A stretch of 64,000 bases of DNA, taken from NCBI GenBank assembly GCA_037447235.1, contig JBBIHC010000002.1:5951-69950 (forward strand), given 5' to 3'. Below, piece by piece: positions 2,990 to 61,078 of this stretch. Positions within the stretch are counted from its first letter, which is position 1. Each line of letters opens with the position of its first letter. Source of the stretch: Candidatus Micrarchaeota archaeon (lineage in GTDB: Archaea; Micrarchaeota; Micrarchaeia; Anstonellales; Bilamarchaeaceae). The notes below the pieces were generated by a model, which saw only the letters and a program-made list of their open reading frames with translations, was not told the origin of the DNA and searched no databases. The position numbers and the translations under genes are program-made.

Positions 2990-3170
2990 AAAAATCGATA
3001 AATGTATTTATTAAATATATTTAAATTTATCGCCTGATTTTTTTAAATGTAATAAAAAATAGATTTTTATAGTTTTTTTTCTCAGACGGCAAAGCAAATG
3101 TTTTTAAATAATGGTTGGGCCGTTTTTCCTACCCGGCGAAACGCCGGGAAAATGCGACCAGGTGAAAAAT

Positions 3171-4250
3171 ATGGAAGATTTGGTAAAGTCCGTTATGGGA
3201 GAGTCCACCTCCCAGGTTAAGGAAGAAAGCGAAGCCATGAGTTCGGAAACGATAAAAATCGTTACCGTGGGTATCGGCGGCGCCGGCAACAACACGATAA
3301 ACCGGCTGATAAAGGCAGGCGTCAAGGGCACTGAGCTTGTTGCTGTCAACACCGACAAGCAGCATTTGGGCATAATACACGAAAGGGCAAAGAAGATTCT
3401 GATAGGCAAGAGCGTCACGAAAGGGCTTGGCGCCGGCGGCTATCCAGAGATAGGCGCAAAGTCTGCAGAGGTTGACAGGCCGCTCATAGAGAAAGAGCTT
3501 GAAAACGCCCATCTTGTTTTCATATGCGCAGGCATGGGCGGCGGGACAGGCGGCGGCGCTGCGCCGATTGTAGCGCAAATCGCAAAGGAGCAGGGCGCGA
3601 TAGTAGTCGCCATGGTAACCTACCCGTTTGCGCTTGAGCGCGCGAGAAAGAAGAAAGCAGACGAAGGCATAAAATTGCTCAAAAAGAGCTGCGACTCGGT
3701 CATCATACTGGACAACAACAGGCTGGTTCAGTTGGTCCCGAACCTGCCGATGACAGAGGCTTTTGCAGTTGCAGATGAAATTTTGGCAAGAGCAATCAGC
3801 GGGCTTGTCTGGACGATCACCCAGCCGTCTTTGATAAACATCGACTTTGCCGACGTCCGCGCAATCATGGAAGGCGGCGGAGTCGGTTTCATAGCTGTGG
3901 GCGAGGGAAAAGGAAACGACAAGGTAAGGGCGGCATCCGAAGGCGTGATAAAGAACAGGCTTCTTGATGTTGACTTTGAAGGCGCAAAGGGTGCATTGAT
4001 ACACATAAGCGGAGGAAGCGACCTTACGCTCGGCGACGCGATAAAAGCAGGCGAGCTGATTACCGAGACGATGGATGCTGAGGCGAATGTTAAGTGGGGC
4101 GCAAGGATAATGCAGAACTACGAGGGCAAGCTTGAGATAGTTGCCATAGTTACCGGCGTCAAGGGAGCATCGGTTGGCGGCTCTGCTTACTCAACAGAAG
4201 AGGAAACAGCCACGCCGTTGTACGGCGAGGAGCTTGAGGTCCTCGGCTAA
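3171..4250 (+). CDS. ftsZ: Cell division GTPase FtsZ.
   Basis: Carries the tubulin/FtsZ signature GIGGAGNNTINRL plus the GGGTGSG-type motif CAGMGGGTGGGAAPIVAQIAKE. The ORF opens at 3111, but a good SD (GGTGA) sits 6 nt before ATG 3171, so that start is preferred. An oligo-T terminator follows. Confidence 0.9.
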   Translation: MEDLVKSVMGESTSQVKEESEAMSSETIKIVTVGIGGAGNNTINRLIKAGVKGTELVAVNTDKQHLGIIHERAKKILIGKSVTKGLGAGGYPEIGAKSAEVDRPLIEKELENAHLVFICAGMGGGTGGGAAPIVAQIAKEQGAIVVAMVTYPFALERARKKKADEGIKLLKKSCDSVIILDNNRLVQLVPNLPMTEAFAVADEILARAISGLVWTITQPSLINIDFADVRAIMEGGGVGFIAVGEGKGNDKVRAASEGVIKNRLLDVDFEGAKGALIHISGGSDLTLGDAIKAGELITETMDAEANVKWGARIMQNYEGKLEIVAIVTGVKGASVGGSAYSTEEETATPLYGEELEVLG

Positions 4251-4253
4251 ATT

Positions 4254-4300
4254 TTTTATTTTTTTTACTTTTTTATTTTTTTTTGCTTTTGACGAATTCT
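4254..4300 (+). terminator. Oligo-T archaeal terminator downstream of ftsZ.
   Basis: The sequence is ttttttattttttttacttttttatttttttttgctttt, immediately after the ftsZ stop. Confidence 0.6.
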
Positions 4301-4411
4301 CTTCCAGCCGCGGCACCATTCACCTGTGTTCTACCACACTTAACCAAGTGGAAACATTTATAAACATTTCTCACAATAATATAACATAAAACACTATATA
4401 TTGGTGGAAAT

Positions 4412-5272
4412 ATGGCAGGAAAATTTAAGCATTCAGGCGGAAATCAGCAGGCTGGGGGTAAAGATGCTAGACACGATGAAAAGATGAGGCAATTGAAGGT
4501 TTCGGATCCTCTGATAGAACAGACAAGGCAGCCAGCGGGCGGCAGATTCCAGGACGGCAGAACAGTGCCAGTGGATTATCCGCAAAAAATGCTTGAATGG
4601 TCAAAAACAGTCGAGCCTAGCCCAGAGGCTGCGGAAGCTTCTTCAAAACCGCTTCCCCCGCCGCCGGCCAGAGTACAGGCTCCGGAAATACAGAAGGTGC
4701 CGCAAAAAGAAACGGCAATGGCCACGGTAAATCCGCAGGCTTTGCAAACAGCCCTTGATGGGCTCACCAAAGCTATAAATGACCTGGGCAGAAGGGTTGG
4801 CGTGGTGGAGCAGTATCACAAGACGACCCTTCGCGAATGGATGACTGCCAAGGACGCCAAGCTTCAGCAGACAGAAGCCGGGTTGGGTTCATTGAGGCAG
4901 GAGCTGGAAGGGCTGAAGCAAGATGCGGTGAATCAGGAAAAGCTGGATTCCACCATTGAGACAGTAGTTGATGGCGTTAGCGGTCTGGTTACCGAAGAGG
5001 TAAATAAAGCGACTGACAGGTTTGACGCGGATGCAAAGAAACTCGCGGATGAACTTGACAGGCTTAAGATGTCTGTCAGGGAAATTTCCAGCAAGCATAA
5101 CGAGCTTGTTGATAGTTGGGCTGAGTTGTCGCAGCTTCGCGAAAACTTTTCCGAGTTTGAGGGAGCGCTGAGCAACCTGCTCACCAACTTTGAGTCGTTC
5201 CTGGCAAGCATTGCTTACGCCAGCAATGACATAATTAAGAAAATAAGGAATAATGGTGGTAGCAATGAGTAA
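4412..5272 (+). CDS. Hypothetical protein with a disordered Gly/Gln/Pro-rich N-terminus and a long coiled-coil.
   Basis: The 286-aa ORF has a heptad-rich C-terminal 170 aa (LQQTEAGLGSLRQELEGLKQD and following). Its own AT-rich promoter lies directly downstream of ftsZ. Its 3' end overlaps the next ORF. Confidence 0.5.
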   Translation: MAGKFKHSGGNQQAGGKDARHDEKMRQLKVSDPLIEQTRQPAGGRFQDGRTVPVDYPQKMLEWSKTVEPSPEAAEASSKPLPPPPARVQAPEIQKVPQKETAMATVNPQALQTALDGLTKAINDLGRRVGVVEQYHKTTLREWMTAKDAKLQQTEAGLGSLRQELEGLKQDAVNQEKLDSTIETVVDGVSGLVTEEVNKATDRFDADAKKLADELDRLKMSVREISSKHNELVDSWAELSQLRENFSEFEGALSNLLTNFESFLASIAYASNDIIKKIRNNGGSNE

Positions 5273-7295
5273 AAAACTCAATGCCAGGGAAGTTAAGGCA
5301 GTTCTCAAGGAGAGATTGAAACAGATGGAGCAGAAAAGCCAGCCGCTCGTGGAGCAGCCGACAGCTCTTCCGGCAACCAAAAAAAATGGTCTGCAGAATG
5401 TTGAGGAAGAGGACGACTTGTTAAGAAGCACGCGAGAATTGATGAAAGAAATAGACGAGGTCCACTCGAGCGTGTTTAACGCGCCCCCGCCGAGCTTTAG
5501 CGACGGGCCGACCGACCCGAATATAAAACTGACCTCTAAAAAGCCAAAGAAAGAGGAACCATCGCCTCTCGAAGTTTTGGACAAGGAAATCAACTCGGCT
5601 ATAAGCGGCCTGGACAAACAGCTGAACAAAGAGGAAACCGCTTCTGTAGAAGAAGCAGAAAGCAGCCAGCCTGAGCAGCAGAGTACGGCTGATGCTGGCG
5701 CGGTTGGGCAGTCGGTTCCTGAAAGCGCAGAGGCGCAGCATTCAGTCCTGCCGGTTTTGCCTATTGAACTGCCCGACGTGTCTGAAGCACCGGGCAAAGA
5801 AGCAGCCCCTGTTGAAGCAGCAGCCGAAGCGGCATGCTACGAAAGCCAGGGGGACCTGGTCCTGCCGGTTTGCGTTGTTGAGCAGGGCGAATCCCCCCAG
5901 CCAGAAGCAAAACCGAGTTTCAGCCAGGGCGGCACAACCATGAGCCATAATGTTCAAGCGAACGGAGCAAAAGCGCCAAGCGAAAGCGCCCGGGCGGCTG
6001 AAAAACCCTTCGGCCAGACTGGCACAACAATAAGCAGCGTGCCTGAAGGCGAACGCAGCAGACGCTCGATTTTCGGCATAGGCGCCGAAGTTGAGAAGTT
6101 GCTTGAGAGGCGCGAGGCAGAACAGCTTGACTCTCTTGAGCAGATTCCTTCGTCCCGCTATGATGAGCAGACAACGCCCGGGGAACCGCAGATTAAAATT
6201 ACCCCGCCGCAGTCAGAATCCGCTCAGTTCCAACAGCTCAAACCTAATAAAAAGCCAAAAAGATGGAAAAAGTGGCTGGCAGGAGCGTTGATAGCGGCAG
6301 GTCTACTCGCTTCCGGCATCGGCATTTATCTAAGTTCAAGAGACCGTAAAGACGCGCCACCAGCAGTAATTTCGGCGTGCGCCGAAAGCCCGACCTTAGG
6401 TGGTAAAGAGTGTCCGTTCATAAGCCAGGCTTCAATCTGTCTTAGTGATACTTATATGATAAGCACAGAATTTTTTTGCGACCCAATAAAAGTTACTGTG
6501 GACGATGAGTTTTCAAACTGTGTGCCAGGGACGTGTACTGTTTCTTTCCCAAACTTCAAATGGGAAGCGATTAGCCTCAAAGAGCTTGATAAAAAGATTA
6601 TTGATAACCTTAACTACCTTCTTGTTCAAAACGAGTACTTGTCCATTATACCGCCGGAGTTGTTACTTAACTTGTCCATTATACCGCCGGAGTTGATACT
6701 TAAAATGCCGGAGTTGTTACTTAAAATGCCAAAGCTGTTTACTGAAGGGTTTTGCATATCCCTATCATTTGAAGAAGCGCAAAGATATCTGACATTGCCG
6801 TTAGATGAGCCAAAAAAAGGGATAAGACCGATGTACCTTCTACCCAGAACCAAAGTCATAATAAACACGTCCTCGCTATTGTTTACTGTCAATCTAAACG
6901 GAACAAGAGGTGATGCCTCATTCGCGAACGTTATGAAAGAAAAGCATTCTGGCGAGAGCATCATAGGCTTAAAAAACATCTCTGAAATAGAGCATATTTG
7001 CAACAAAACTGCCAATCCTGTTAGCTGCCTTGGCGGAGCTTTGGCAAACCTGACCGGCCAGATAAAAAGCGCCATAAACAATGTTGGCAGGCTGGCTTAC
7101 AAAGGGCTGCTCGGGAACGGCTCTTGCGACAAGAGAGACATTACCATCGTATCGCCAGACGGGGGGCACGCAACGGTTATAGGTTACAACGAGACTGAGA
7201 TGCCGGAAGCAAAAGAGAATGACTGCAAGCCTGCCCCGCCGAGGGGAGGCGGTTTTAACTTGCCTCTTGGAATGGGCGCGGCCACGGGCCAATAA
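5253..7295 (+). CDS. Bitopic membrane protein. Has an acidic/Pro-rich disordered cytoplasmic N-terminal half, a single TM, and a Cys-containing extracytoplasmic C-domain.
   Basis: The 680-aa ORF has a single TM at WLAGALIAAGLLASGIGIYL near residue 340. The C-domain carries multiple Cys, N-glycosylation sequons, and the internal tandem peptide repeat LSIIPPELLLN/LSIIPPELILK/MPELLLK. Confidence 0.5.
   Translation: MVVAMSKKLNAREVKAVLKERLKQMEQKSQPLVEQPTALPATKKNGLQNVEEEDDLLRSTRELMKEIDEVHSSVFNAPPPSFSDGPTDPNIKLTSKKPKKEEPSPLEVLDKEINSAISGLDKQLNKEETASVEEAESSQPEQQSTADAGAVGQSVPESAEAQHSVLPVLPIELPDVSEAPGKEAAPVEAAAEAACYESQGDLVLPVCVVEQGESPQPEAKPSFSQGGTTMSHNVQANGAKAPSESARAAEKPFGQTGTTISSVPEGERSRRSIFGIGAEVEKLLERREAEQLDSLEQIPSSRYDEQTTPGEPQIKITPPQSESAQFQQLKPNKKPKRWKKWLAGALIAAGLLASGIGIYLSSRDRKDAPPAVISACAESPTLGGKECPFISQASICLSDTYMISTEFFCDPIKVTVDDEFSNCVPGTCTVSFPNFKWEAISLKELDKKIIDNLNYLLVQNEYLSIIPPELLLNLSIIPPELILKMPELLLKMPKLFTEGFCISLSFEEAQRYLTLPLDEPKKGIRPMYLLPRTKVIINTSSLLFTVNLNGTRGDASFANVMKEKHSGESIIGLKNISEIEHICNKTANPVSCLGGALANLTGQIKSAINNVGRLAYKGLLGNGSCDKRDITIVSPDGGHATVIGYNETEMPEAKENDCKPAPPRGGGFNLPLGMGAATGQ
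6641..6730 (+). repeat. Intragenic tandem repeat: a roughly 33-nt unit twice, followed by partial copies.
   Basis: The DNA reads tccattataccgccggagttgttacttaacttg, then tccattataccgccggagttgatacttaaaatg, then ccggagttgttacttaaaatgcc. Confidence 0.7.
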
Positions 7296-7381
7296 TCTTT
7301 TCTTTTTTTTGTGTTTTTTTGAGCAATCGGCAGCAGGCGGTTTAGCATAATAATTTAAATTTACGATTCCTTATCTGCAGT

Positions 7382-8053
7382 ATGGCAAAGCCAAGAGCAT
7401 TTTTCTTTGACATTGACAACACACTCTATCCGTCCCGCGAGTTTGCTGAGCTTGCGCGGAAAAATGCGATAAGCGCGATGATAAGGGCAGGCCTGCCCGC
7501 GAGCATAAAAGAAGTTGAAAGGGAGCTAAACAAGGTAATAATGGAAAAAGGCTCAAATTATCCCTATCATTTTGACAAGGTTCTGGATGCGTTCGGGGTA
7601 AAAAACAAGGCGAAATATGTCGCTGCTGCGGTTGCAGCCTATCATGACACCAAGATAACGATATTGCCGTATCCTGAGGTGCCACGTGTTCTTCTTTGGC
7701 TCAGGGATAAGAGGATAAAACTTTATGTGGCATCAGAGGGCATTGAGGTAAAGCAGTGGGACAAACTTTTGCGGTTGCAGGTGGCGCAATATTTTGAAAA
7801 TGTTTTCGTAGCAAATCCTAGCAAAGGCGGTAAAGATGCGGAATTTTACCGAAAAATTGCCAAAAAAATAAACGTTGCTCCGAGTGAATGCCTTATGGTT
7901 GGCGACAAGGAAGACAAGGACATCATCCCAGCCAAAAAAGCCAGTTACAGAACGATAAGGATTTTCAGAGGCCCTTATGCCGGCAAAGGAAGGAAAACCG
8001 CTGCTGATATTTCAAGCAGAGATCTGAACATCTTGTTTAAAATTATTGATTAA
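7382..8053 (+). CDS. HAD-superfamily hydrolase.
   Basis: Motif I is FFFDIDNTLY. A C-terminal MVGDKEDKDI matches motif IV. Confidence 0.65.
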   Translation: MAKPRAFFFDIDNTLYPSREFAELARKNAISAMIRAGLPASIKEVERELNKVIMEKGSNYPYHFDKVLDAFGVKNKAKYVAAAVAAYHDTKITILPYPEVPRVLLWLRDKRIKLYVASEGIEVKQWDKLLRLQVAQYFENVFVANPSKGGKDAEFYRKIAKKINVAPSECLMVGDKEDKDIIPAKKASYRTIRIFRGPYAGKGRKTAADISSRDLNILFKIID

Positions 8054-8111
8054 GCCGCATTGTCGGCAGAGAAGTAAGGTTTTTTAAACAATTGTCAAAT
8101 AAGATAAAGCC

Positions 8112-8954
8112 ATGAAGAACATCGTTTTGTTAATCATAATTTTGGCAGCATCGCTGTTTTTGTTTGGCTGTTTTGAAAGCCAGACAAAATGCACGAAAAG
8201 TTCTGACTGCAAGGATTACGAGGTTTGCAACATTCAGACAGGCGTTTGTGAGCTTAAGCCCGGATACTGCAGCATTGATAGCGATTGCAATGATAGCCTG
8301 ACAACCTGCAACAGAACAACTCATCAGTGCGTTTTTCTTGAAGGCAGGTGCAGGATTGACAGCGACTGCCCTGTTTGGCAGGTGTGCACTGTTGGAAACA
8401 ACTGCGTAGCTGCAAGTGGCTTCTGCGATTCTGATGCACAGTGCGACCCGGCTTTTGAATACTGCGACCCTGAAAGGCACAAGTGCGAGCCAAAGGCAGG
8501 CTTATGCAGGAGCAACAGCGACTGCGACGGTTGGGAAGAATGCAATCTTACATCAAGAAAATGCGTTGTTCTGCCCGGAAGATGCAACATTGACGGTGAT
8601 TGCGAGAGCTGGCAGGTTTGCGATGTCAAGACGCATTACTGCAAGGCAAAGGCGGAATATTGCATAAACGATGCTGACTGCAAAGAATGGGCTAAATGCG
8701 ACCTTGAGCAGCATCGCTGCGTGGCAAGGCAGGGCTTCTGCGCCGCAGACAACGACTGCAACTGGTGGGAGTACTGCAGCCCGCAGACGCATAAGTGCGC
8801 AGTGAGAAAGGACCACTGCAATTCAGGGAGCGACTGCGGCAGCTGGCAGGTTTGCGTGGAGCACCGCTGCAAGGCAAAGGCAGGGTACTGCGATGTTGAC
8901 CAGGATTGCGTTGCCGGAGAGACCTGCAATCAGGCAACACACAGATGCCAGTGA
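8112..8954 (+). CDS. Secreted lipoprotein made of about ten tandem 27-residue four-Cys repeats.
   Basis: The signal peptide carries the lipobox LFGC. The repeats follow C-x2-DSDC-x2-W-x2-C-x3-TH-x-C-x4-G, for example CRIDSDCPVWQVC, CNIDGDCESWQVC and CINDADCKEWAKC. Their period is about 81 nt at the DNA level. Confidence 0.6.
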   Translation: MKNIVLLIIILAASLFLFGCFESQTKCTKSSDCKDYEVCNIQTGVCELKPGYCSIDSDCNDSLTTCNRTTHQCVFLEGRCRIDSDCPVWQVCTVGNNCVAASGFCDSDAQCDPAFEYCDPERHKCEPKAGLCRSNSDCDGWEECNLTSRKCVVLPGRCNIDGDCESWQVCDVKTHYCKAKAEYCINDADCKEWAKCDLEQHRCVARQGFCAADNDCNWWEYCSPQTHKCAVRKDHCNSGSDCGSWQVCVEHRCKAKAGYCDVDQDCVAGETCNQATHRCQ

Positions 8955-9023
8955 TTTTTTTCGTCAGGCTGCAAAACGAATACATTTTTAAATAAACACT
9001 TATAATTATCGCCAGGTGACAAT

Positions 9024-9422
9024 ATGTTTGGAATGGTTGGGATAAGGCTGCTTGATGGGAGCGTTAGCATAAAAGAGGATAAGCCGCCGAAAGGCCTTTC
9101 TATAGACCTGAAGATAACAAAAATCTCAAAGACCGACAGGGAAGATCTCGCGAATGTCAGGTTTTCCTATCTTGTGGGCTACACGCCGAATACTGCTGTC
9201 CTGAAGCTTGAAGGCGAGGCGCTGGTGACTGATGAACCTAAGGAATTGGATAAAATGGTTTCATCCTGGAAAGAGAAGCACAGGATAGACGAGAATATGG
9301 CCGCCAACATCCTGAATGCGATTAACCCGTATGTAACGCATAACGCTTTGCTCGTTCTCAGGGCGTTCAACCTGCCTCCGCACATCGCTCCTCCCCCAAT
9401 AATGCCGTCAAAAAAGAAGTAA
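9024..9422 (+). CDS. Hypothetical protein.
   Basis: A 132-aa ORF in the same orientation as the downstream membrane protein, with tight spacing to it. Confidence 0.35.
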   Translation: MFGMVGIRLLDGSVSIKEDKPPKGLSIDLKITKISKTDREDLANVRFSYLVGYTPNTAVLKLEGEALVTDEPKELDKMVSSWKEKHRIDENMAANILNAINPYVTHNALLVLRAFNLPPHIAPPPIMPSKKK

Positions 9423-9428
9423 GTTGGT

Positions 9429-10157
9429 TTGATGGAGCTCAAGACCGTCTTTTCCGCTTACGGCGAAAAGCCATTTCTTTTCATCTGGGGCTCAGTGCTT
9501 TATGTCTTCTTTTCACTGCTTGTGCTGTTTGCCACGACAGGCATACTCCTTTTTTCCTCACTCGCGCTTTTCTTTGCGGGTTTTCCGCTTTCTTTTGAAG
9601 ACTACACGACCATCACCCTCTACGCAATCCCCCTTCTCGCTGCTGTGTTTTTTTTGATATACATGAACGGCTGCATAACGGCAGCAACAATATACGCATA
9701 CAAAAAAGCGCTTACGGGCTCGCATGTTTCCCTTGTTGAGTTCTATCATTACGGCCTGTCGCGCGGCCCGATGATCTTTTCAATAGGCATAATGCGCGAT
9801 TTCTTCATGCTCATCATAATCGGCATCGGCGTAGCGCTCTATTACTATGCCCTGCAGGACTGGGAATACGGAATCCATCTTCTCGCTTTGTATTCTCTCT
9901 CGGTTTTCTTTGTCTTCCATCTAACCGCAAAACCCGGGATAATCGCGTGCGGGCTTGGCGCAGAGCCATTTGAGGCATTCAAGGAGCTTTATTTCGTGTT
10001 TGCAGAAAAGCACATATACTATGTGAGCTTTTTCTTCATCTACAGCATCATCTGGCTACTGAATTTCATCCCGCTTATCCAGTTTGTCTCCCTTCCTGTT
10101 CTCTATCCGCTTGTTTATAGCGCGCTTATCACGATGGTTGAGGAAGAAAGAAAGTGA
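9429..10157 (+). CDS. Polytopic integral membrane protein.
   Basis: The 242-aa protein has 6-7 hydrophobic helices. It ends in TGA 4 nt before the next ATG. Confidence 0.5.
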   Translation: MMELKTVFSAYGEKPFLFIWGSVLYVFFSLLVLFATTGILLFSSLALFFAGFPLSFEDYTTITLYAIPLLAAVFFLIYMNGCITAATIYAYKKALTGSHVSLVEFYHYGLSRGPMIFSIGIMRDFFMLIIIGIGVALYYYALQDWEYGIHLLALYSLSVFFVFHLTAKPGIIACGLGAEPFEAFKELYFVFAEKHIYYVSFFFIYSIIWLLNFIPLIQFVSLPVLYPLVYSALITMVEEERK

Positions 10158-10576: not shown

Positions 10577-13500
10577 GTGAGCGGGATGAAGATAAAATAT
10601 TCAGGCAGAAAGGATGCGAAAGATTTAAATAGCGTTAGTGCGACTAGTTATAAGCCGAAATCTTTCTCGGCAAAGCATCCGTTGCTTGCTAAAATACTGG
10701 CAACATGTTTAATGTTTGAAGGTGTGTGTATGCCGTTTGGAAGTGTTAGGGCGGCCCCGAGGGAGGCGGCGGGAGCGGAAAAGAAAAACGAAGTGGCAGA
10801 GCAGGCAAAAATCCTAAAAGAATTCACTAATCTTATTCCTAAAATTAAGGCGGAGCAAAAAACTGCCCGCGTGTCTGAAAAGTTTCAGGGCTACATAACT
10901 GCAGACAGCGAATACGCTAAACAAATCTTTAAACTTTTGCAAAAGTTGGGTTTTGTAATAAAAATTAACGATAATGCGAGAAGAGACGGCATATACATCG
11001 GACAAGGCACTAATATATTGTCGGTTTATCTATTTGACCAAACGGTTGAGGGTGTTGTGAATCTCGGCAAACTGGATGATCTGTACAAGAAAGTAATTGA
11101 AGTATTTAACCAGAAGCAGGCTGAAAGTTTGGCTGAGGAAGCTTTGGTAGGGCTGGTGCAGGCAGTGCCGGCAAAAACCGCTGGCAAGGAAGAGGAGCCT
11201 ATCCCGGTCGGGCTGGCTGAGTCTGAAAAAACTAAAGAAACTAAGCCACCAGAAGCCCAAGCCGAAGAGCCCGCTCATGCTGAAGTTAAACAATCTGTGA
11301 AGGTAGATGTAGAAGAGGTAATAAAGGACTTTAATGGGTTTTTAGACAATTGGTCTTTGTTTGCTATAAAGTTAAATCTTTCTCTCGCGAGCATCGCCCC
11401 TCCCCAAAAAATCAACAAAAACGATAAACAAGCCATTCAAAAAATAGCACAGACATTGTTTAAGGATTCAGAAAATTTGCTAGGCCATTTCAATAAAATG
11501 CAAAACAATGATGATAAACTACTTTTTTTGTCCAATCATATTAAGGCACTGCTTCACCTGCAAGACAAAGCCCTCCTGGAGTACATAAAAGAATCTGAGA
11601 CCACGCGCGGGGAAAAAGAAGCGGTTAAAAAAATACTAAAAAGTAAAGGTGTCAAAGTTGACGGCTTTTCCATATACAGCGTTGTAGGCGCGAGAATGCT
11701 TTTATTGCGCATAAACGAGATGGCTCTGCGACACCACGAAAACAAAGCACAGAAGTTGTTCCAAAATAAAAACAAAGTCAAAAACGACATGGGAGAAAAC
11801 TATGAAACTTTCAAAAAAATCGTTGATTTGGAGCACGAGCGTTTACTGCATATGCACGATCCTGATCTTAATAGGGCCAACAAAAGACTATTTAACAGTC
11901 TTGTTTCTAACAAACTTTCTTCCGTTGGCAGCAGTGTCGTACAAAGCGCTTTCGGCGCCGATGATGGATTTTTCAAGTTGCTGGAAGATATACCCGAAAA
12001 TCTGGACCCCAATAAAAAAGAAATCGCATTATATACACTGTTGTCAATCGCAGAGCTTAAGCTTTTATTGGACCTAAAAGAAAAAGACGTTATTAAAAAA
12101 GGAGACAAAACTGGTGCAGAGGCTAGCCTTGGGCTTGCGAAAGACCAGTTTGTAAGGCTTTTCATTAACCGAGAAAAAGAAGAAGAGAATATGAGGCTGC
12201 AAGACCAAAACGTCGACCTTTCAAAAGCCATCAATGACAACGCCGCGTTGGTAATTGCGAATGCAGGCATTGCGAAGATTCTGCCTTACTGGCACGATTT
12301 TGCCGCTTACATAAACAGGAATTATTATCAAGTTGACAAACCGGATCTTAAAAAAAGATACGATGCTGTTTTTGACTTGTTGGCGTATAATTTGAACGTA
12401 ACAAACATCCAAAAAGGATACTACCCAATGAGATACGCGGCCATCGCACAATTGCGCCCCTCGCTGACGACTTCAGCGGATAGAGAATATGTTGGAACTT
12501 TATTTACTAATGTTGTAGGCCCGGAACAAATAGAAAAAATATATAAGAAAGGTGCAGGCTATCATCAGGCATTTACTCCTGCTTTGCTGGGCATAGGCGG
12601 AGGAAGCACCAATTACATTGTCGGCGACCTAATGGTTAAAGAAATCATTAGCGACAAATTTTGGAGTACTGCTGATAACATTAGGGTGGAATCCCAAAAT
12701 AGTAGTCTTGAAAAAAGAAAGGACTATCAAAAAAATTCAGCTCTTCAAGACATATTGCAGAAAGCAGGAGTATGGTATATCGAAAAACTGCTGGCTTTTG
12801 GCGCGCCAACCGCAGTTGAGATAAAGAAGGAGGAAAAGACAGAAGAAATGCAGGCAGAAACTACGCCGCCTGCCATACTGCAACTTCCGTCCCTCCTGCC
12901 AGAGCGGTTCCCGCAGCCTTTTATGCCTTCCCGCTACACTGCCAAGGCAGGCGAAACTAATTACATATTCGGCGAAAATATGTCAGCCGCGCTGACATCT
13001 ATGTTTGGCGAGGAAAAGACAAAGGGTTTATACGATGCATTTGCAGAAGGCTTAAATGCCAAAGACCCCGAACAGGTTAAAAATGCTGCATCTGCTCTTT
13101 ACGATATTATATTAACCGGTTGGAATCCGACGAGCGATGCGGACAGCGGCACAAAAGCAGCTATTTTAAAAGCGCTTGAGAAGGCAAAAGAAAGCGGCGA
13201 TACAGCGGATTTCAAGATGGCGCTTATGACATTCAGCGACCGCCTTGGGGTCAACCTTTTGGAAAATTTCTATACTTACCGTTTTGAAGGCGATACGCTG
13301 AGAGTCAGGATCCCCATCGGGATTGAGGTGGCGCTCCGCTTGGGCTTGTCTGAATCTGAAATAAGAAGCAAAGTAGAAGCGCGGGGAGTCGCGTTCCTGA
13401 CAGGGTTGGCTGTTCAGCTTGGCTATCTTTACCGCCCGGTCAATGGCAGATTATCAGAGTACCAATTAAAGGGCTTTGATGAGCAAGGAAAATTAATAGT

Positions 13501-14188
13501 TGAACCGACAGGGGAATCCATCTCGGCAACGCTTGAAACGCACGCCATTGACATTAACACAGCTCTTGACTTGTTGGCTTTCAAGGCGCCTGAAGCTTTG
13601 GGGGGTATTGGGGTTATAAGGGTGAATGCGGCTGTTGAAATAGACAAGGCATCCCTGAAAACAGCCATCCACGGCCAGCCGCTTGCCATAAGCGACTGGG
13701 TTGCTTCATTCAAAAGCATAGGAATAAGCGCTGACTTTCCTGGAGGCGAAGGCTTAAAGATAAGATCAGTCGGCCTCGGAGGATGGGGCATAGGCAGCAT
13801 AAGCGAAGAAGGGCTGAAGTGGGACCCAACGAGCAACTGGTATGGAAATGTTGTGCTGGGGTGGACTGAAAAGTTGGATGAATATCAACCACTTGCGTTG
13901 CAGCGGCTGACATTTTATTTAAGCCCGACAGTTCTTTTCGGCGGGCAGACAGGCTTTTCGTTGACAGGAGGCATTCAGTCAGTCCATAGAATTTCAGAAA
14001 ACTGGTATGCTCTGCCGGCGCTAAACGCAACATACCTTTACGACGGCAGGAATAATTATGGCCAAGGGTCCACCGAAGTCCTGTTCAATTTTGCGCCTTG
14101 GGGGCTTGCTGCCGGCCTTGGAGCTTCTTTGGACAGCAACCTTAATTATTCAGTTATGCTTTTGTTCAGGTTTAACCTGGAGAGATAA
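10577..14188 (+). CDS. Very large ORFan protein of 1203 aa. Has an N-terminal hydrophobic anchor, a long K/E-rich helical region, and a Gly/Ser-rich beta-like C-terminal 250 aa.
   Basis: A long uninterrupted ORF preceded by an AT-rich promoter. The N-terminus has the hydrophobic stretch LLAKILATCLMFEGVCMPFGSV. The C-terminal segment has alternating hydrophobic residues (...GFSLTGGIQSV...NYSVMLLFRFNLER). It is the first gene of a three-gene operon. Confidence 0.5.
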   Translation: MSGMKIKYSGRKDAKDLNSVSATSYKPKSFSAKHPLLAKILATCLMFEGVCMPFGSVRAAPREAAGAEKKNEVAEQAKILKEFTNLIPKIKAEQKTARVSEKFQGYITADSEYAKQIFKLLQKLGFVIKINDNARRDGIYIGQGTNILSVYLFDQTVEGVVNLGKLDDLYKKVIEVFNQKQAESLAEEALVGLVQAVPAKTAGKEEEPIPVGLAESEKTKETKPPEAQAEEPAHAEVKQSVKVDVEEVIKDFNGFLDNWSLFAIKLNLSLASIAPPQKINKNDKQAIQKIAQTLFKDSENLLGHFNKMQNNDDKLLFLSNHIKALLHLQDKALLEYIKESETTRGEKEAVKKILKSKGVKVDGFSIYSVVGARMLLLRINEMALRHHENKAQKLFQNKNKVKNDMGENYETFKKIVDLEHERLLHMHDPDLNRANKRLFNSLVSNKLSSVGSSVVQSAFGADDGFFKLLEDIPENLDPNKKEIALYTLLSIAELKLLLDLKEKDVIKKGDKTGAEASLGLAKDQFVRLFINREKEEENMRLQDQNVDLSKAINDNAALVIANAGIAKILPYWHDFAAYINRNYYQVDKPDLKKRYDAVFDLLAYNLNVTNIQKGYYPMRYAAIAQLRPSLTTSADREYVGTLFTNVVGPEQIEKIYKKGAGYHQAFTPALLGIGGGSTNYIVGDLMVKEIISDKFWSTADNIRVESQNSSLEKRKDYQKNSALQDILQKAGVWYIEKLLAFGAPTAVEIKKEEKTEEMQAETTPPAILQLPSLLPERFPQPFMPSRYTAKAGETNYIFGENMSAALTSMFGEEKTKGLYDAFAEGLNAKDPEQVKNAASALYDIILTGWNPTSDADSGTKAAILKALEKAKESGDTADFKMALMTFSDRLGVNLLENFYTYRFEGDTLRVRIPIGIEVALRLGLSESEIRSKVEARGVAFLTGLAVQLGYLYRPVNGRLSEYQLKGFDEQGKLIVEPTGESISATLETHAIDINTALDLLAFKAPEALGGIGVIRVNAAVEIDKASLKTAIHGQPLAISDWVASFKSIGISADFPGGEGLKIRSVGLGGWGIGSISEEGLKWDPTSNWYGNVVLGWTEKLDEYQPLALQRLTFYLSPTVLFGGQTGFSLTGGIQSVHRISENWYALPALNATYLYDGRNNYGQGSTEVLFNFAPWGLAAGLGASLDSNLNYSVMLLFRFNLER

Positions 14189-40891: not shown

Positions 40892-41398
40892 TTGAAGATA
40901 AAACTGACGCCGGAGCTTGCCTATGTCATCGGGCTCTGGAGAAAAAGGCGCTCTTTTGAGGGGCTTGGCATACACGCTGAGCAGAAGCTTTTGGAAATTT
41001 TCTCGCAACAGGTGCTTGCCCAGAAACTCACGGCGCCGGAAAAACTCCTTGCGGACGGCAAGAGGGTGTATTTTTACCATACCGCATACAAGAAATTTTT
41101 TGGCGAGGTTGAAAAGGAGCAGCTTGAGAGGTTCAAGTACCTAAACGAGTATGCCGCCAATTATCTGGCCGGCCTTTTTGACGCAGTGGGCGAAATTGAC
41201 GAAAAGGGCGTTGTTTCCCTTTCCAAGCTTAACAGCGAAGACGAACTCATGCTGCTGCGCCTTGGATTCAAGACAAAAAGAAAAAAGGAAAAGTGCATAA
41301 TAGAGAAGCCGCTGGTATTTCTGGCATTCATAAAAAACTATGTAAGGGCCTCAAAGGACCAGAAGGCATTTGATTTGATTGAAAAATTAAGAAAATAG
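40892..41398 (+). CDS. Free-standing LAGLIDADG-type homing-endonuclease-like protein.
   Basis: It has two LAGLIDADG-like helices, LAYVIGLWRKRRSFEG and NYLAGLFDAVGEIDEKG. The start is TTG. It is not embedded in an intron or intein. Confidence 0.5.
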   Translation: MKIKLTPELAYVIGLWRKRRSFEGLGIHAEQKLLEIFSQQVLAQKLTAPEKLLADGKRVYFYHTAYKKFFGEVEKEQLERFKYLNEYAANYLAGLFDAVGEIDEKGVVSLSKLNSEDELMLLRLGFKTKRKKEKCIIEKPLVFLAFIKNYVRASKDQKAFDLIEKLRK

Positions 41399-41409
41399 GG
41401 AGGGCAGGG

Positions 41410-41523
41410 CTAGAGCTCGCCCACTCTTCGTTTTATCTTTCTCTTCAATCTTCTTCTCTTTTTCTTTACCCACTTCCAGCGCATCTTGTTCTTCTTTTTC
41501 CATTTTCGCGGCTTTGAACCCAT
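41410..41523 (-). CDS. rpl41e: Ribosomal protein eL41 (L41e). This small ORF is absent from the ORF track.
   Basis: The minus-strand translation is MGSKPRKWKKKNKMRWKWVKKKRRRLKRKIKRRVGEL. The core MRWKWVKKKRRRLKRKIKRR closely matches the eukaryotic eL41 [25 protein letters not shown]. An SD-like GGGGGAT lies upstream of ATG 41523. The internal Met at 41484 is an alternative start. Confidence 0.6.
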   Translation of the reverse strand: MGSKPRKWKKKNKMRWKWVKKKRRRLKRKIKRRVGEL

Positions 41524-41597
41524 CTTATCCCCCGCAATAAACGCAATATGGTAGTGACACTATTGTTTGGCACATTTTTAAAAGTATGCTGGCTTGT

Positions 41598-41837
41598 TCA
41601 TTTTTTTCTTTCGGTGATAAGCAGGCCGTCTATTATGCCGTAGGCATAATTGGCAGCCCCGAAGCCGCTGAAATAGTCGCCGGTTGCCAGAAAGTGCTCG
41701 GCATCGCTTAGATAGTTTTTTGCCCACTCATAAGCTTCCTTGTATTTCCTTTCCAGGCCGGCTTCCCTGAATTCCCCCAATATGCGTTTTAGTTTTTCCA
41801 CATCCTTTTCAGCCCGTTCTTTTTGGTCCATGGCAGG
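41598..41837 (-). CDS. Hypothetical small protein.
   Basis: Taking the start at the internal Met (MPAMDQKER...) avoids overlap with the Lhr 3' end. The conserved-looking GDYFSGFGAANYAYGIIDG motif is present. Confidence 0.35.
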   Translation of the reverse strand, partial: PAMDQKERAEKDVEKLKRILGEFREAGLERKYKEAYEWAKNYLSDAEHFLATGDYFSGFGAANYAYGIIDGLLITERKK

Positions 41838-60955: not shown

Positions 60956-61078
60956 TGCCAAGGGGGGAATTCGAATCCCCGACCTCTCGATTTCCCAGCT
61001 ATCATCGGCTTTCGCCTCAACACTCATAGGGTTTTTTGCCTATGAGTCGAGCACTCTAACCAACTGAGCTACCTTGGC
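60956..61078 (-). tRNA. tRNA-Met (anticodon CAT; elongator Met or Ile2) with a roughly 49-nt intron at the canonical 37/38 position.
   Basis: The minus strand reads GCCAAGG-TA-GCTC-AGTTGGTTA-GAGT-G-CTCGA-CTCATA[49 nt]A-TCGAG-AGGTC-GGGGA-TTCGAAT-TCCCC-CCTTGGC-A. Acceptor, D, anticodon and T stems all pair. No CCA is encoded. A TATA-like TTTTTAATC sits about 26-34 nt upstream. Confidence 0.8.

Follow-up and report, generated by a model that had tools for sequence, protein, structure and literature searches.

The gene at positions 8112 to 8954 on the forward strand of a 64,000-nucleotide (nt) stretch of DNA from a small symbiotic archaeon, Candidatus Micrarchaeota (contig JBBIHC010000002.1; this whole stretch is called the window, and its numbering is used throughout) encodes a cysteine-rich protein that is predicted to be anchored to the membrane by a lipid and to consist of ten consecutive mini-domains stapled by disulfides. 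A lipid-anchored ten-module rod that serves as a component of the cell envelope is, in our assessment, the best explanation of the findings as a whole, with a probability of roughly 55%. The structural description, in which the lipoprotein is made of ten mini-domains with a cystine-stabilized beta-sheet (CSB) fold, is very probable. A function as an envelope strut is proposed tentatively. The gene, its modules and their conservation, the predicted fold with its analogues, and the stalk architecture of relatives are documented below. We infer that the protein is lipidated, that its cysteines are paired in a regular manner, that the resulting rod is rigid, and that it acts in the envelope.

A predicted lipoprotein built from ten four-cysteine modules

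The open reading frame (ORF) encodes 280 amino acids (aa), and its span includes the stop codon. The protein starts with MKNIVLLIIILAASLFLFGC, in which a basic beginning is followed by a hydrophobic core and then by the lipobox L17-F18-G19-C20. The DNA for this signal peptide and lipobox, which runs from MKN through the hydrophobic core to L-F-G-C20, occupies positions 8112 to 8171 of the forward strand. The PROSITE PS51257 rule permits phenylalanine at position −2 of a lipobox. This residue lies outside the strict archaeal consensus, which is [L/V/I]-3 [A/S/T/V/I]-2 [G/A/S]-1 C+1 (PMC12462473), and most orthologues carry [LIV]-A-G-C. Lipobox proteins and the lipidation enzyme AliA are reportedly common among DPANN archaea (PMC12462473). 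Judged from the sequence, the mature protein probably starts at C20, and this residue probably carries the lipid.

The lipobox cysteine and the four cysteines in each of ten modules account for all 41 cysteines of the protein. This agrees with an earlier note on this DNA, which described the product of ORF 8112-8954 as a protein with an LFGC lipobox that is built wholly of ten four-cysteine modules and has 40 module cysteines. The modules fill residues 27 to 280 with the spacing C-x5-C-x5-C-x6-C-x6. A consensus made from 100 modules (ten orthologues, ten modules each) reads xxGxCxxDxDCxxWxxCxxxxHxCxxxxGx and matches the motif given in the note. The module length of 27 residues that had accompanied this motif is less exact, as the modules range from 24 to 27 residues and most commonly have 26.

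The modules, which all lie on the forward strand, were delimited from the sequence and the orthologue alignment. Module 1 (residues 27-52, CTKSSDCKDYEVCNIQTGVCELKPGY, positions 8190-8267), whose four cysteines are invariant among orthologues, is followed by module 2 (residues 53-79, CSIDSDCNDSLTTCNRTTHQCVFLEGR, 8268-8348), module 3 (residues 80-104, CRIDSDCPVWQVCTVGNNCVAASGF, 8349-8423), and module 4 (residues 105-131, CDSDAQCDPAFEYCDPERHKCEPKAGL, 8424-8504), the most conserved of all modules in the orthologues. Next come module 5 (residues 132-157, CRSNSDCDGWEECNLTSRKCVVLPGR, 8505-8582), module 6 (residues 158-183, CNIDGDCESWQVCDVKTHYCKAKAEY, 8583-8660), which was also modeled singly, module 7 (residues 184-209, CINDADCKEWAKCDLEQHRCVARQGF, 8661-8738), module 8 (residues 210-235, CAADNDCNWWEYCSPQTHKCAVRKDH, 8739-8816), and module 9 (residues 236-259, CNSGSDCGSWQVCVEHRCKAKAGY, 8817-8888). 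In module 10 (residues 260-280, CDVDQDCVAGETCNQATHRCQ, 8889-8951), glycine replaces the tryptophan, and the chain stops one residue past the last cysteine.

All 39 cysteine-to-cysteine gaps counted in the mature protein are four to six residues long. When the same composition was shuffled 20,000 times, gaps of this size numbered 8.0 on average (standard deviation 2.5) and never exceeded 18, which rules out chance as the cause of the regular spacing. Cysteine makes up 14.5% of the protein, compared with mostly ∼2% or less in the other long forward-frame ORFs of the window that were taken as genes. The module was found in no other ORF of the window, and a search for paralogues within the window returned none.

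At the DNA level, the array had been described as a divergent tandem repeat of about 81 nt. The periodicity and the divergence are evident, with pairs of modules sharing 46%–69% of their nucleotides (mean 54%), but the period is mostly 78 nt and only sometimes 81 nt. The period emerges from seed-based repeat finding, in which segments of ∼30 nt recur with 60%–77% identity; Tandem Repeats Finder reported no tandem repeat in positions 7500 to 9500. The gene is also crossed by several ORFs of 79-116 aa in antisense or alternative frames, as expected from the note's remark that the repeat produces many spurious antisense ORFs. Some of these shadow ORFs also recur at orthologous loci, merely as a by-product of the conserved gene.

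The predicted module fold matches the disulfide core of knottins

The whole protein was modeled with AlphaFold2 from a ten-sequence alignment, giving a mean pLDDT of 88.2 and a pTM of 0.48, the latter being in line with what is expected for a rod shape. The model repeats strictly. Each module has a single bridge residue directly before the first cysteine (C1), a one-turn helix over D-S-D before C2, and a beta-hairpin whose two strands bear C3 and C4, respectively. When module 6 was modeled alone with the 100-module alignment, the pLDDT was 89.7.

A Foldseek search of the PDB with this single module gives the cysteine-rich domain of draxin as the top structural match (5z5k_B; TM-score TMq 0.77, 0.4 Å root-mean-square deviation [rmsd], 24 columns, probability 1.00). 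Other matches are the Ascaris suum carboxypeptidase inhibitor (ACI; 3fju_B, TMq 0.73, 1.8 Å, 26 columns), the knottin EETI-II, a squash trypsin inhibitor (1h9i_I and 1w7z_A, TMq 0.68, 1.0-1.1 Å, 24-25 columns), the knottin CPTI-II (2btc_I, TMq 0.66, 0.8 Å, 23 columns), and many spider toxins of the inhibitor cystine knot type (TMq about 0.4-0.75). Close structural analogues of the module therefore exist in the CSB core of knottins, in ACI, and in the cysteine-rich domains of draxin and Dickkopf (Dkk), and its fold is not new.

A comparison of sequences points to the same proteins. With a hidden Markov model (HMM) of the module, ACI is the best match among PDB sequences (E=0.002, in two stretches), and knottins of the EETI type follow at E=0.03-1.7; a profile of the whole protein produced chance-level matches only in the same set. 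The HMM alignment places C1, C2, C3, and C4 on C9, C15, C21, and C27 of EETI-II, which are knottin cysteines II, III, V, and VI, and it places the module's x-D-S-D-C on the K-Q-D-S-D-C turn. The two share the register C-x5-C-x5-C-x(5-6)-C, the helical turn C-x-x-D-S-D-C, and the hairpin with the last two cysteines, and the knottin cores superimpose on the module at 0.8-1.1 Å over 23-25 residues. The CSB core is defined by exactly these four knottin cysteines (PMC2238874), and Min-23, which is EETI-II cut to its two-disulfide core, folds autonomously (PMC6259850). Given this register, C1 is likely to be bonded to C3, and C2 to C4, in every module.

The modules do not have the six cysteines and the I-IV, II-V, III-VI knot that characterize knottins. 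There are four cysteines per module, and knottin cysteines I and IV have no counterpart. The modules therefore lack the I-IV disulfide and with it the knot, and they also lack the inhibitory loop, which in EETI-II sits between cysteines I and II. A conserved tryptophan stands one residue ahead of the position of knottin cysteine IV and may fill in for the missing third disulfide. Knottins are single secreted eukaryotic peptides, whereas the lipoprotein described here joins ten units in one chain, head to tail. The CSB core itself is recognized by an rmsd below 2.5 Å to a reference knottin (KNOTER3D, PMC2238874). As measured through Foldseek alignments rather than with KNOTER3D, the predicted module lies 0.8 Å from the reference knottin CPTI-II (2btc_I) over 23 columns and 1.0 Å from 1h9i_I over 24 columns. 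In its predicted structure the module resembles the CSB motif, which is a known elementary motif and not a new one.

The other analogues differ from the array more strongly. ACI has two stretches of the form C-x5-C-x5-C-x6-C with an S-D-T-D-C turn, and its structure is said to contain two tandem domains with two disulfides each. It has two such units compared with ten here, it is a soluble nematode protein, and it carries an inhibitory C-terminal tail that the archaeal protein is missing. Draxin and Dickkopf are animal signaling proteins, and domains of the Dkk type have ten cysteines in ∼50 residues with extra cross-links. The Dickkopf N-terminal domain (Dickkopf_N, PF04706) matches weakly across two modules (residues 210-253), with a score of 16.3 bits (E=0.013) that is below the 25 bits needed. 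As had been noted from the cysteine spacing, the protein is unlike EGF, TNFR, and Kazal domains: none of these Pfam models matched at E<=10. Structures containing TNFR or EGF domains did appear in a Foldseek search with the whole model, but these matches are nonsignificant, with rmsd values of 10-25 Å. The weak matches of that search also include the disulfide-rich lectin scytovirin (2qsk) and the Entamoeba Gal/GalNAc lectin.

The array is conserved with a fixed number of modules

A word-indexed protein search returned nine homologues of 271-293 aa with 40%–52% identity, one of which has a 90%-cluster mate deposited as a protein of a metagenome-assembled genome (MAG) of 'Candidatus ainarchaeum sp.' Scanning a single genome from each GTDB species then yielded 38 loci. 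All but one are in MAGs labeled Micrarchaeota, Micrarchaeia, Bilamarchaeaceae, or Iainarchaeum (37 loci), and the remaining locus encodes a bacterial relative of 2061 aa. The orthologues are 45%–65% identical to the window protein, the closest (65%) being from a Bilamarchaeaceae MAG. The kinship of these closest loci supports an archaeal origin of the window, as do an apparently intron-containing tRNA and the TATA box upstream of the gene, both described below. For the alignment, 36 archaeal orthologues were combined with the window protein to give 37 sequences; the fragmentary locus L039 was excluded.

Orthologue lengths fall between 278 and 293 aa, and the number of modules is ten in every one of the 37 sequences. 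This result contradicts the expectation that the copy number of the repeat would vary among strains, as exactly ten modules are present in all 37 species. All 41 cysteine columns are invariant, as are G19 and C20 of the lipobox, and every sequence starts with basic residues and has a hydrophobic core. Pairs of sequences are 59% identical on average, and 90 residue columns reach a conservation of 90% or more. The modules differ rather little in their conservation, which peaks in module 4. Single modules also bear signatures of their own, such as ARQG-C-xx-DN-x-CN-x-WE in modules 7 and 8. In module 10, G269 is retained in 36 of the 37 sequences and E270, N273, and H277 in all of them. Taken together, the constant module number, the even conservation, and the module-specific signatures of the aligned sequences indicate that the array is old and that every module is under individual constraint, rather than being part of a recently expanding repeat.

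The cysteine-rich protein evolves at about the same slow pace as its neighbor. The mean identity of orthologues to their counterpart in the window is 50% for the cysteine-rich protein, which equals the value for the neighboring cytoplasmic HAD enzyme.

In the hairpin turn of module 1, an N-x-S/T sequon is found at residue 40 (window positions 8229-8231) in 32 of the 37 orthologues; the window protein has N-I-Q instead. The orthologues hold one to four sequons in total.

Stalk-like arrays of the modules in distant relatives

Of the curated models, the protein passes only that of the Pfam family DUF5885 (PF19232), and it does so marginally, with 34.7 bits against a gathering threshold of 33.2 (E=1.7e-8). 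The best-matching stretch (residues 96-184) covers profile positions 25-109 of 265, or about a third of a profile whose full length corresponds to about ten modules. All ten of the orthologues found first also match DUF5885 at E<=0.01, the best of them at 1.2e-11. No function has been described for this family, and a search of one literature library for DUF5885 and PF19232 returned no paper. The protein was thus assigned to no known family with a defined function, an assignment that would have refuted the earlier note.

Among NCBIfam models, the Myxococcales cysteine-rich repeat family TIGR04201 (cut-off 25 bits) gave no match to the window protein at E<=10, and the model for TraA, the receptor for outer-membrane exchange in Myxococcus, reached a chance-level score on the repeat region (12.4 bits, E=0.043; equivalog cut-off 750). 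TraA and the window protein are both prokaryotic secreted proteins with tandem cysteine-rich repeats of the type C-x-x-D-x-D-C-x-x-G-x-x-C, although their similarity is remote. The TIGR04201 repeat, which was defined in TraA, has been suggested to act as a rigid stalk that presents a PA14 domain (PMC3325183). TraA has this PA14 head and a MYXO-CTERM tag, whereas the window protein is headless and carries its lipobox at the N-terminus.

A profile search of 1.84 billion representative sequences revealed 330 clusters at E<=1e-3, of which 113 clusters reach E<=1e-10. Several architectures occur among these relatives. There are giant proteins of 1,800-2,000 aa in which ∼17-24 detected modules are combined with thrombospondin type-3 (TSP3) repeats, proteins from high-GC bacteria of ∼600-860 aa in which 9-16 modules precede a 300-aa domain or an RCC1 propeller, and Micrarchaeota paralogues with an inserted globular domain. 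A PROSITE-like lipobox is present in 80 of 133 distant relatives. In 60 of these 80 the array adjoins the anchor, and in 60 the C-terminal part comprises 150 aa or more outside the modules, with RCC1 and TSP3 domains among the regions of this kind. The database name of every relative looked up is 'hypothetical protein'.

When eight distant relatives were compared with NCBIfam, nothing usable emerged save for P0017, a protein of the Micrarchaeota paralogue type that scores 25.3 bits, at the cut-off, with TIGR04201 (Myxo_Cys_RPT). P0017 and P0026, both from Micrarchaeota MAGs, have about seven modules followed by a ∼230-aa domain without cysteine. Further modules lie beyond this domain in P0017, and P0026 was deposited as a partial sequence. 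The bacterial locus of the genome scan (L041, 'bacterium isolate 4559-240', positions 3133-9318 of the forward strand) is a 2061-aa ORF with an N-terminal lipobox-like signal and 34% identity to the array. It resembles the relatives P0012, P0014, and P0019 of 1,800-2,000 aa, of which P0012, the sole one scanned, has thrombospondin type-3 repeats. A 2026 preprint on 'cysteine-rich repeats' and horizontal gene transfer (10.64898/2026.06.07.730663) was considered and set aside; it concerns another repeat, which is fungal, and its Micrarchaeota matches involve non-repeat parts only.

Possible roles at the cell surface

In the mechanism that we propose, the Sec system would export the protein and Cys20 would be lipidated. 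The mature chain of 261 aa would then fold into ten consecutive mini-domains of ∼26 residues. Each would consist of a one-turn helix (x-D-S-D-C) and a following beta-hairpin, with the residue before C1 providing a third mini-strand, and each would be stapled by the C1-C3 and C2-C4 disulfides, which makes 20 disulfides per protein. Because only about four residues connect successive modules, the chain is expected to be a thin, stiff rod, which would project from the membrane and resist proteases and heat. In most distant relatives the array lies as a stalk between the lipid anchor and a distal globular domain, a head that is absent here. The protein itself could then be a constitutive component of the envelope, either as a strut, spacer, or anchor of fixed length between the membrane and the S-layer or as a conserved docking rod. 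The lack of a head, the fixed length, the slow evolution similar to that of the HAD enzyme, and the consensus promoter described below all argue for a constitutive envelope element rather than a variable adhesin.

Several considerations weigh against this interpretation. The Foldseek matches of the single module have nonsignificant E-values of 0.24-2 owing to the shortness of the 30-residue query, and it is only their TM-scores and rmsd values that lend them support. Similarly, the proposed disulfide pairing is drawn from the alignment with the knottin and ACI cores, and it presupposes an organism that is able to make extracytoplasmic disulfides. The pTM value makes the geometry between modules, and so the rigidity of the predicted rod, tentative. 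The regularly spaced and conserved histidine, aspartate, and tryptophan residues could form a ligand-binding face instead of serving structure alone, but binding of metals, carbohydrates, or host-surface ligands, as suggested in the earlier note, is speculative. The connection of the protein to the S-layer is hypothetical. In addition, the orthologues come from a pattern-based scan, and the gene neighborhood consists of housekeeping genes and yields no clue to function.

If the conserved side chains do form such a face, the rod could be an adhesin that binds host glycans or proteins multivalently and aids the attachment of an episymbiont. Tryptophan, histidine, and aspartate return at the same place in almost all modules and persist among orthologues, and two lectins, including the small scytovirin, are among the weak whole-model matches. 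Moreover, a host-attached way of life is ascribed to DPANN archaea of this group (PMC8975820). We nevertheless consider an adhesin unlikely. There is no sign of diversifying evolution, given the fixed number of modules, the 59% pairwise identity, and the same mean identity as the HAD enzyme. The D-S-D turn is also found in EETI-II, where it is structural, which argues that the aspartates are structural; a structural role can be suggested for the tryptophan and histidine as well. No lectin family was matched in the Pfam search, and in the relatives the array serves as a stalk under other domains.

In a more specific version of the envelope role, the lipid-anchored protein would be the missing piece, an anchor or stalk, that ties the Micrarchaeota S-layer to the membrane, with a role like that of SlaB in Sulfolobales. 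The way in which the S-layer of Ca. Micrarchaeum harzensis is anchored has been left open, with a second stalk protein among the options (bioRxiv 10.1101/2021.04.28.441871). In such an arrangement, the fixed length of the rod would set the width of the pseudo-periplasm. We regard this assignment as quite unlikely.

The four cysteines of a module, perhaps together with histidine or aspartate, might instead hold a metal or a cluster, and the protein might then function in sequestration, detoxification, or electron transfer at the surface. The earlier note had allowed for either two disulfides or a metal site per module. There are 40 regularly spaced cysteines and a conserved histidine in most modules, and the source habitats are in many cases probably anoxic, which would disfavor disulfides. 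However, the signal peptide and lipobox indicate that the protein is exported, the 5/5/6/6 spacing includes no CxxC knuckles, and the aromatic residues and confidently predicted beta-hairpin are unlike metallothioneins. The cysteine register also fits the disulfide cores of solved proteins at ∼1 Å. These observations favor the first of the two options and make a metal or redox function distinctly improbable.

Among the closest matches in sequence and structure are protease inhibitors: ACI is the best PDB sequence match of the module profile, and the best structural matches include EETI-II and MCoTI. Even so, a multi-headed membrane-anchored protease inhibitor that shields the cell surface is very improbable. 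Nothing beyond the scaffold core is shared, and the modules have neither cysteine I nor the loop between cysteines I and II. ACI inhibits its target by means of its C-terminal tail (PMC5511257), whereas the chain here stops one residue past its last cysteine. In addition, toxins and Dkk/draxin domains have the same core with unrelated functions.

Significance of the array

The protein is not categorically new, since its family is already cataloged as a DUF and the fold of its module is a known motif. We found no description of DUF5885-type proteins as tandem arrays of two-disulfide knottin cores, of the stalk architecture across the ∼330 clusters, or of a headless lipoprotein with a fixed set of ten modules that is conserved in Micrarchaeota. 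If our interpretation is correct, then the smallest autonomous disulfide fold of eukaryotic toxins and inhibitors is also a prokaryotic building block for rigid surface stalks, and Micrarchaeota have a conserved envelope protein made of such modules alone. The protein would be a concrete, testable candidate for a part in host contact or in the architecture of the envelope, in archaea about whose cell biology very little has been learned. The predicted fold also offers a structural annotation for DUF5885 and for the ∼330 clusters of uncharacterized proteins. As a natural and presumably thermostable modular scaffold with ten Min-23-like units, the array could be of interest to protein engineers. 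Finally, the presence of 20 extracytoplasmic disulfides in one archaeal protein, if true, points to the question of which oxidative folding machinery is used.

Expression signals and neighboring genes

A putative TATA-box-like promoter element, TTTTTTAAAC, lies on the forward strand at positions 8080 to 8089, 23-32 nt upstream of the ATG. The element cTTATAAAAcc is found 23-31 nt upstream of the ATG at nearly all of the 37 orthologous loci. In archaeal promoters, the TATA box is centered near −26. Because its position fits this geometry, the element probably gives the cysteine-rich gene a promoter of its own, and the mRNA would then be leaderless or nearly so. A ccaatag motif is often present downstream of the TATA-like box, at about −14 to −8. 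Directly after the stop codon is a run of seven T residues (8955-8961, forward strand), and T-rich tracts follow the stop codon at most orthologous loci. This candidate oligo-T terminator is likely to act as an archaeal termination signal.

The upstream neighbor (7382-8053, forward strand) encodes a HAD-type hydrolase resembling TIGR02253, as identified by Pfam and NCBIfam matches. A HAD homologue is located upstream on the same strand at 35 of the 37 loci, and at 33 it is at most 120 nt away or overlaps. At most loci the gap between the two genes is 23-24 nt, and the HAD stop codon falls on the TATA box or no more than a few nucleotides away. This overlap suffices to account for the lasting adjacency of the two genes. 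On the downstream side, about 30 other loci have genes for a xylose-isomerase-like TIM barrel, a protein of ∼300 aa with no known role, and a TPR protein, and a gene for GMP synthase also occurs. None of these four genes is at that downstream position in this window. A reading of the region as a functional operon was therefore rejected, given that the HAD linkage is explained by the TATA overlap and that the downstream genes are housekeeping genes which do not occupy this position in the window.

Other features of the window

Additional genes on the forward strand were noted in the window. A gene at 121-2379 encodes a secreted protein of 752 aa with a right-handed beta-helix or NosD-like domain and an acidic, proline-rich linker. 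Its C-terminal hydrophobic segment ends in RRRK, and it is probably a further surface protein. An FtsZ homologue with Tubulin and FtsZ_C domains is encoded at 3111-4250. The 680-aa ORF at 5253-7295 has a sub-threshold GCIP_C match only in Pfam, no NCBIfam match, and a hydrophobic segment in the middle of the chain; a homologue is present at one of the 37 orthologous loci. The ORF at 10577-14188 (1203 aa) has no Pfam match at all.

Two RNA predictions were also made. ARAGORN reported a permuted transfer-messenger RNA ('tmRNA*') of 670 nt at 41133-41802 on the forward strand, which is probably a false positive, as the contig is archaeal and Rfam detects no tmRNA in this segment. On the reverse strand at 60956-61078, Rfam identifies a tRNA with 58.8 bits that was missed by ARAGORN. 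This tRNA extends over 123 nt for a model of 71 positions, which suggests that it contains an archaeal intron.

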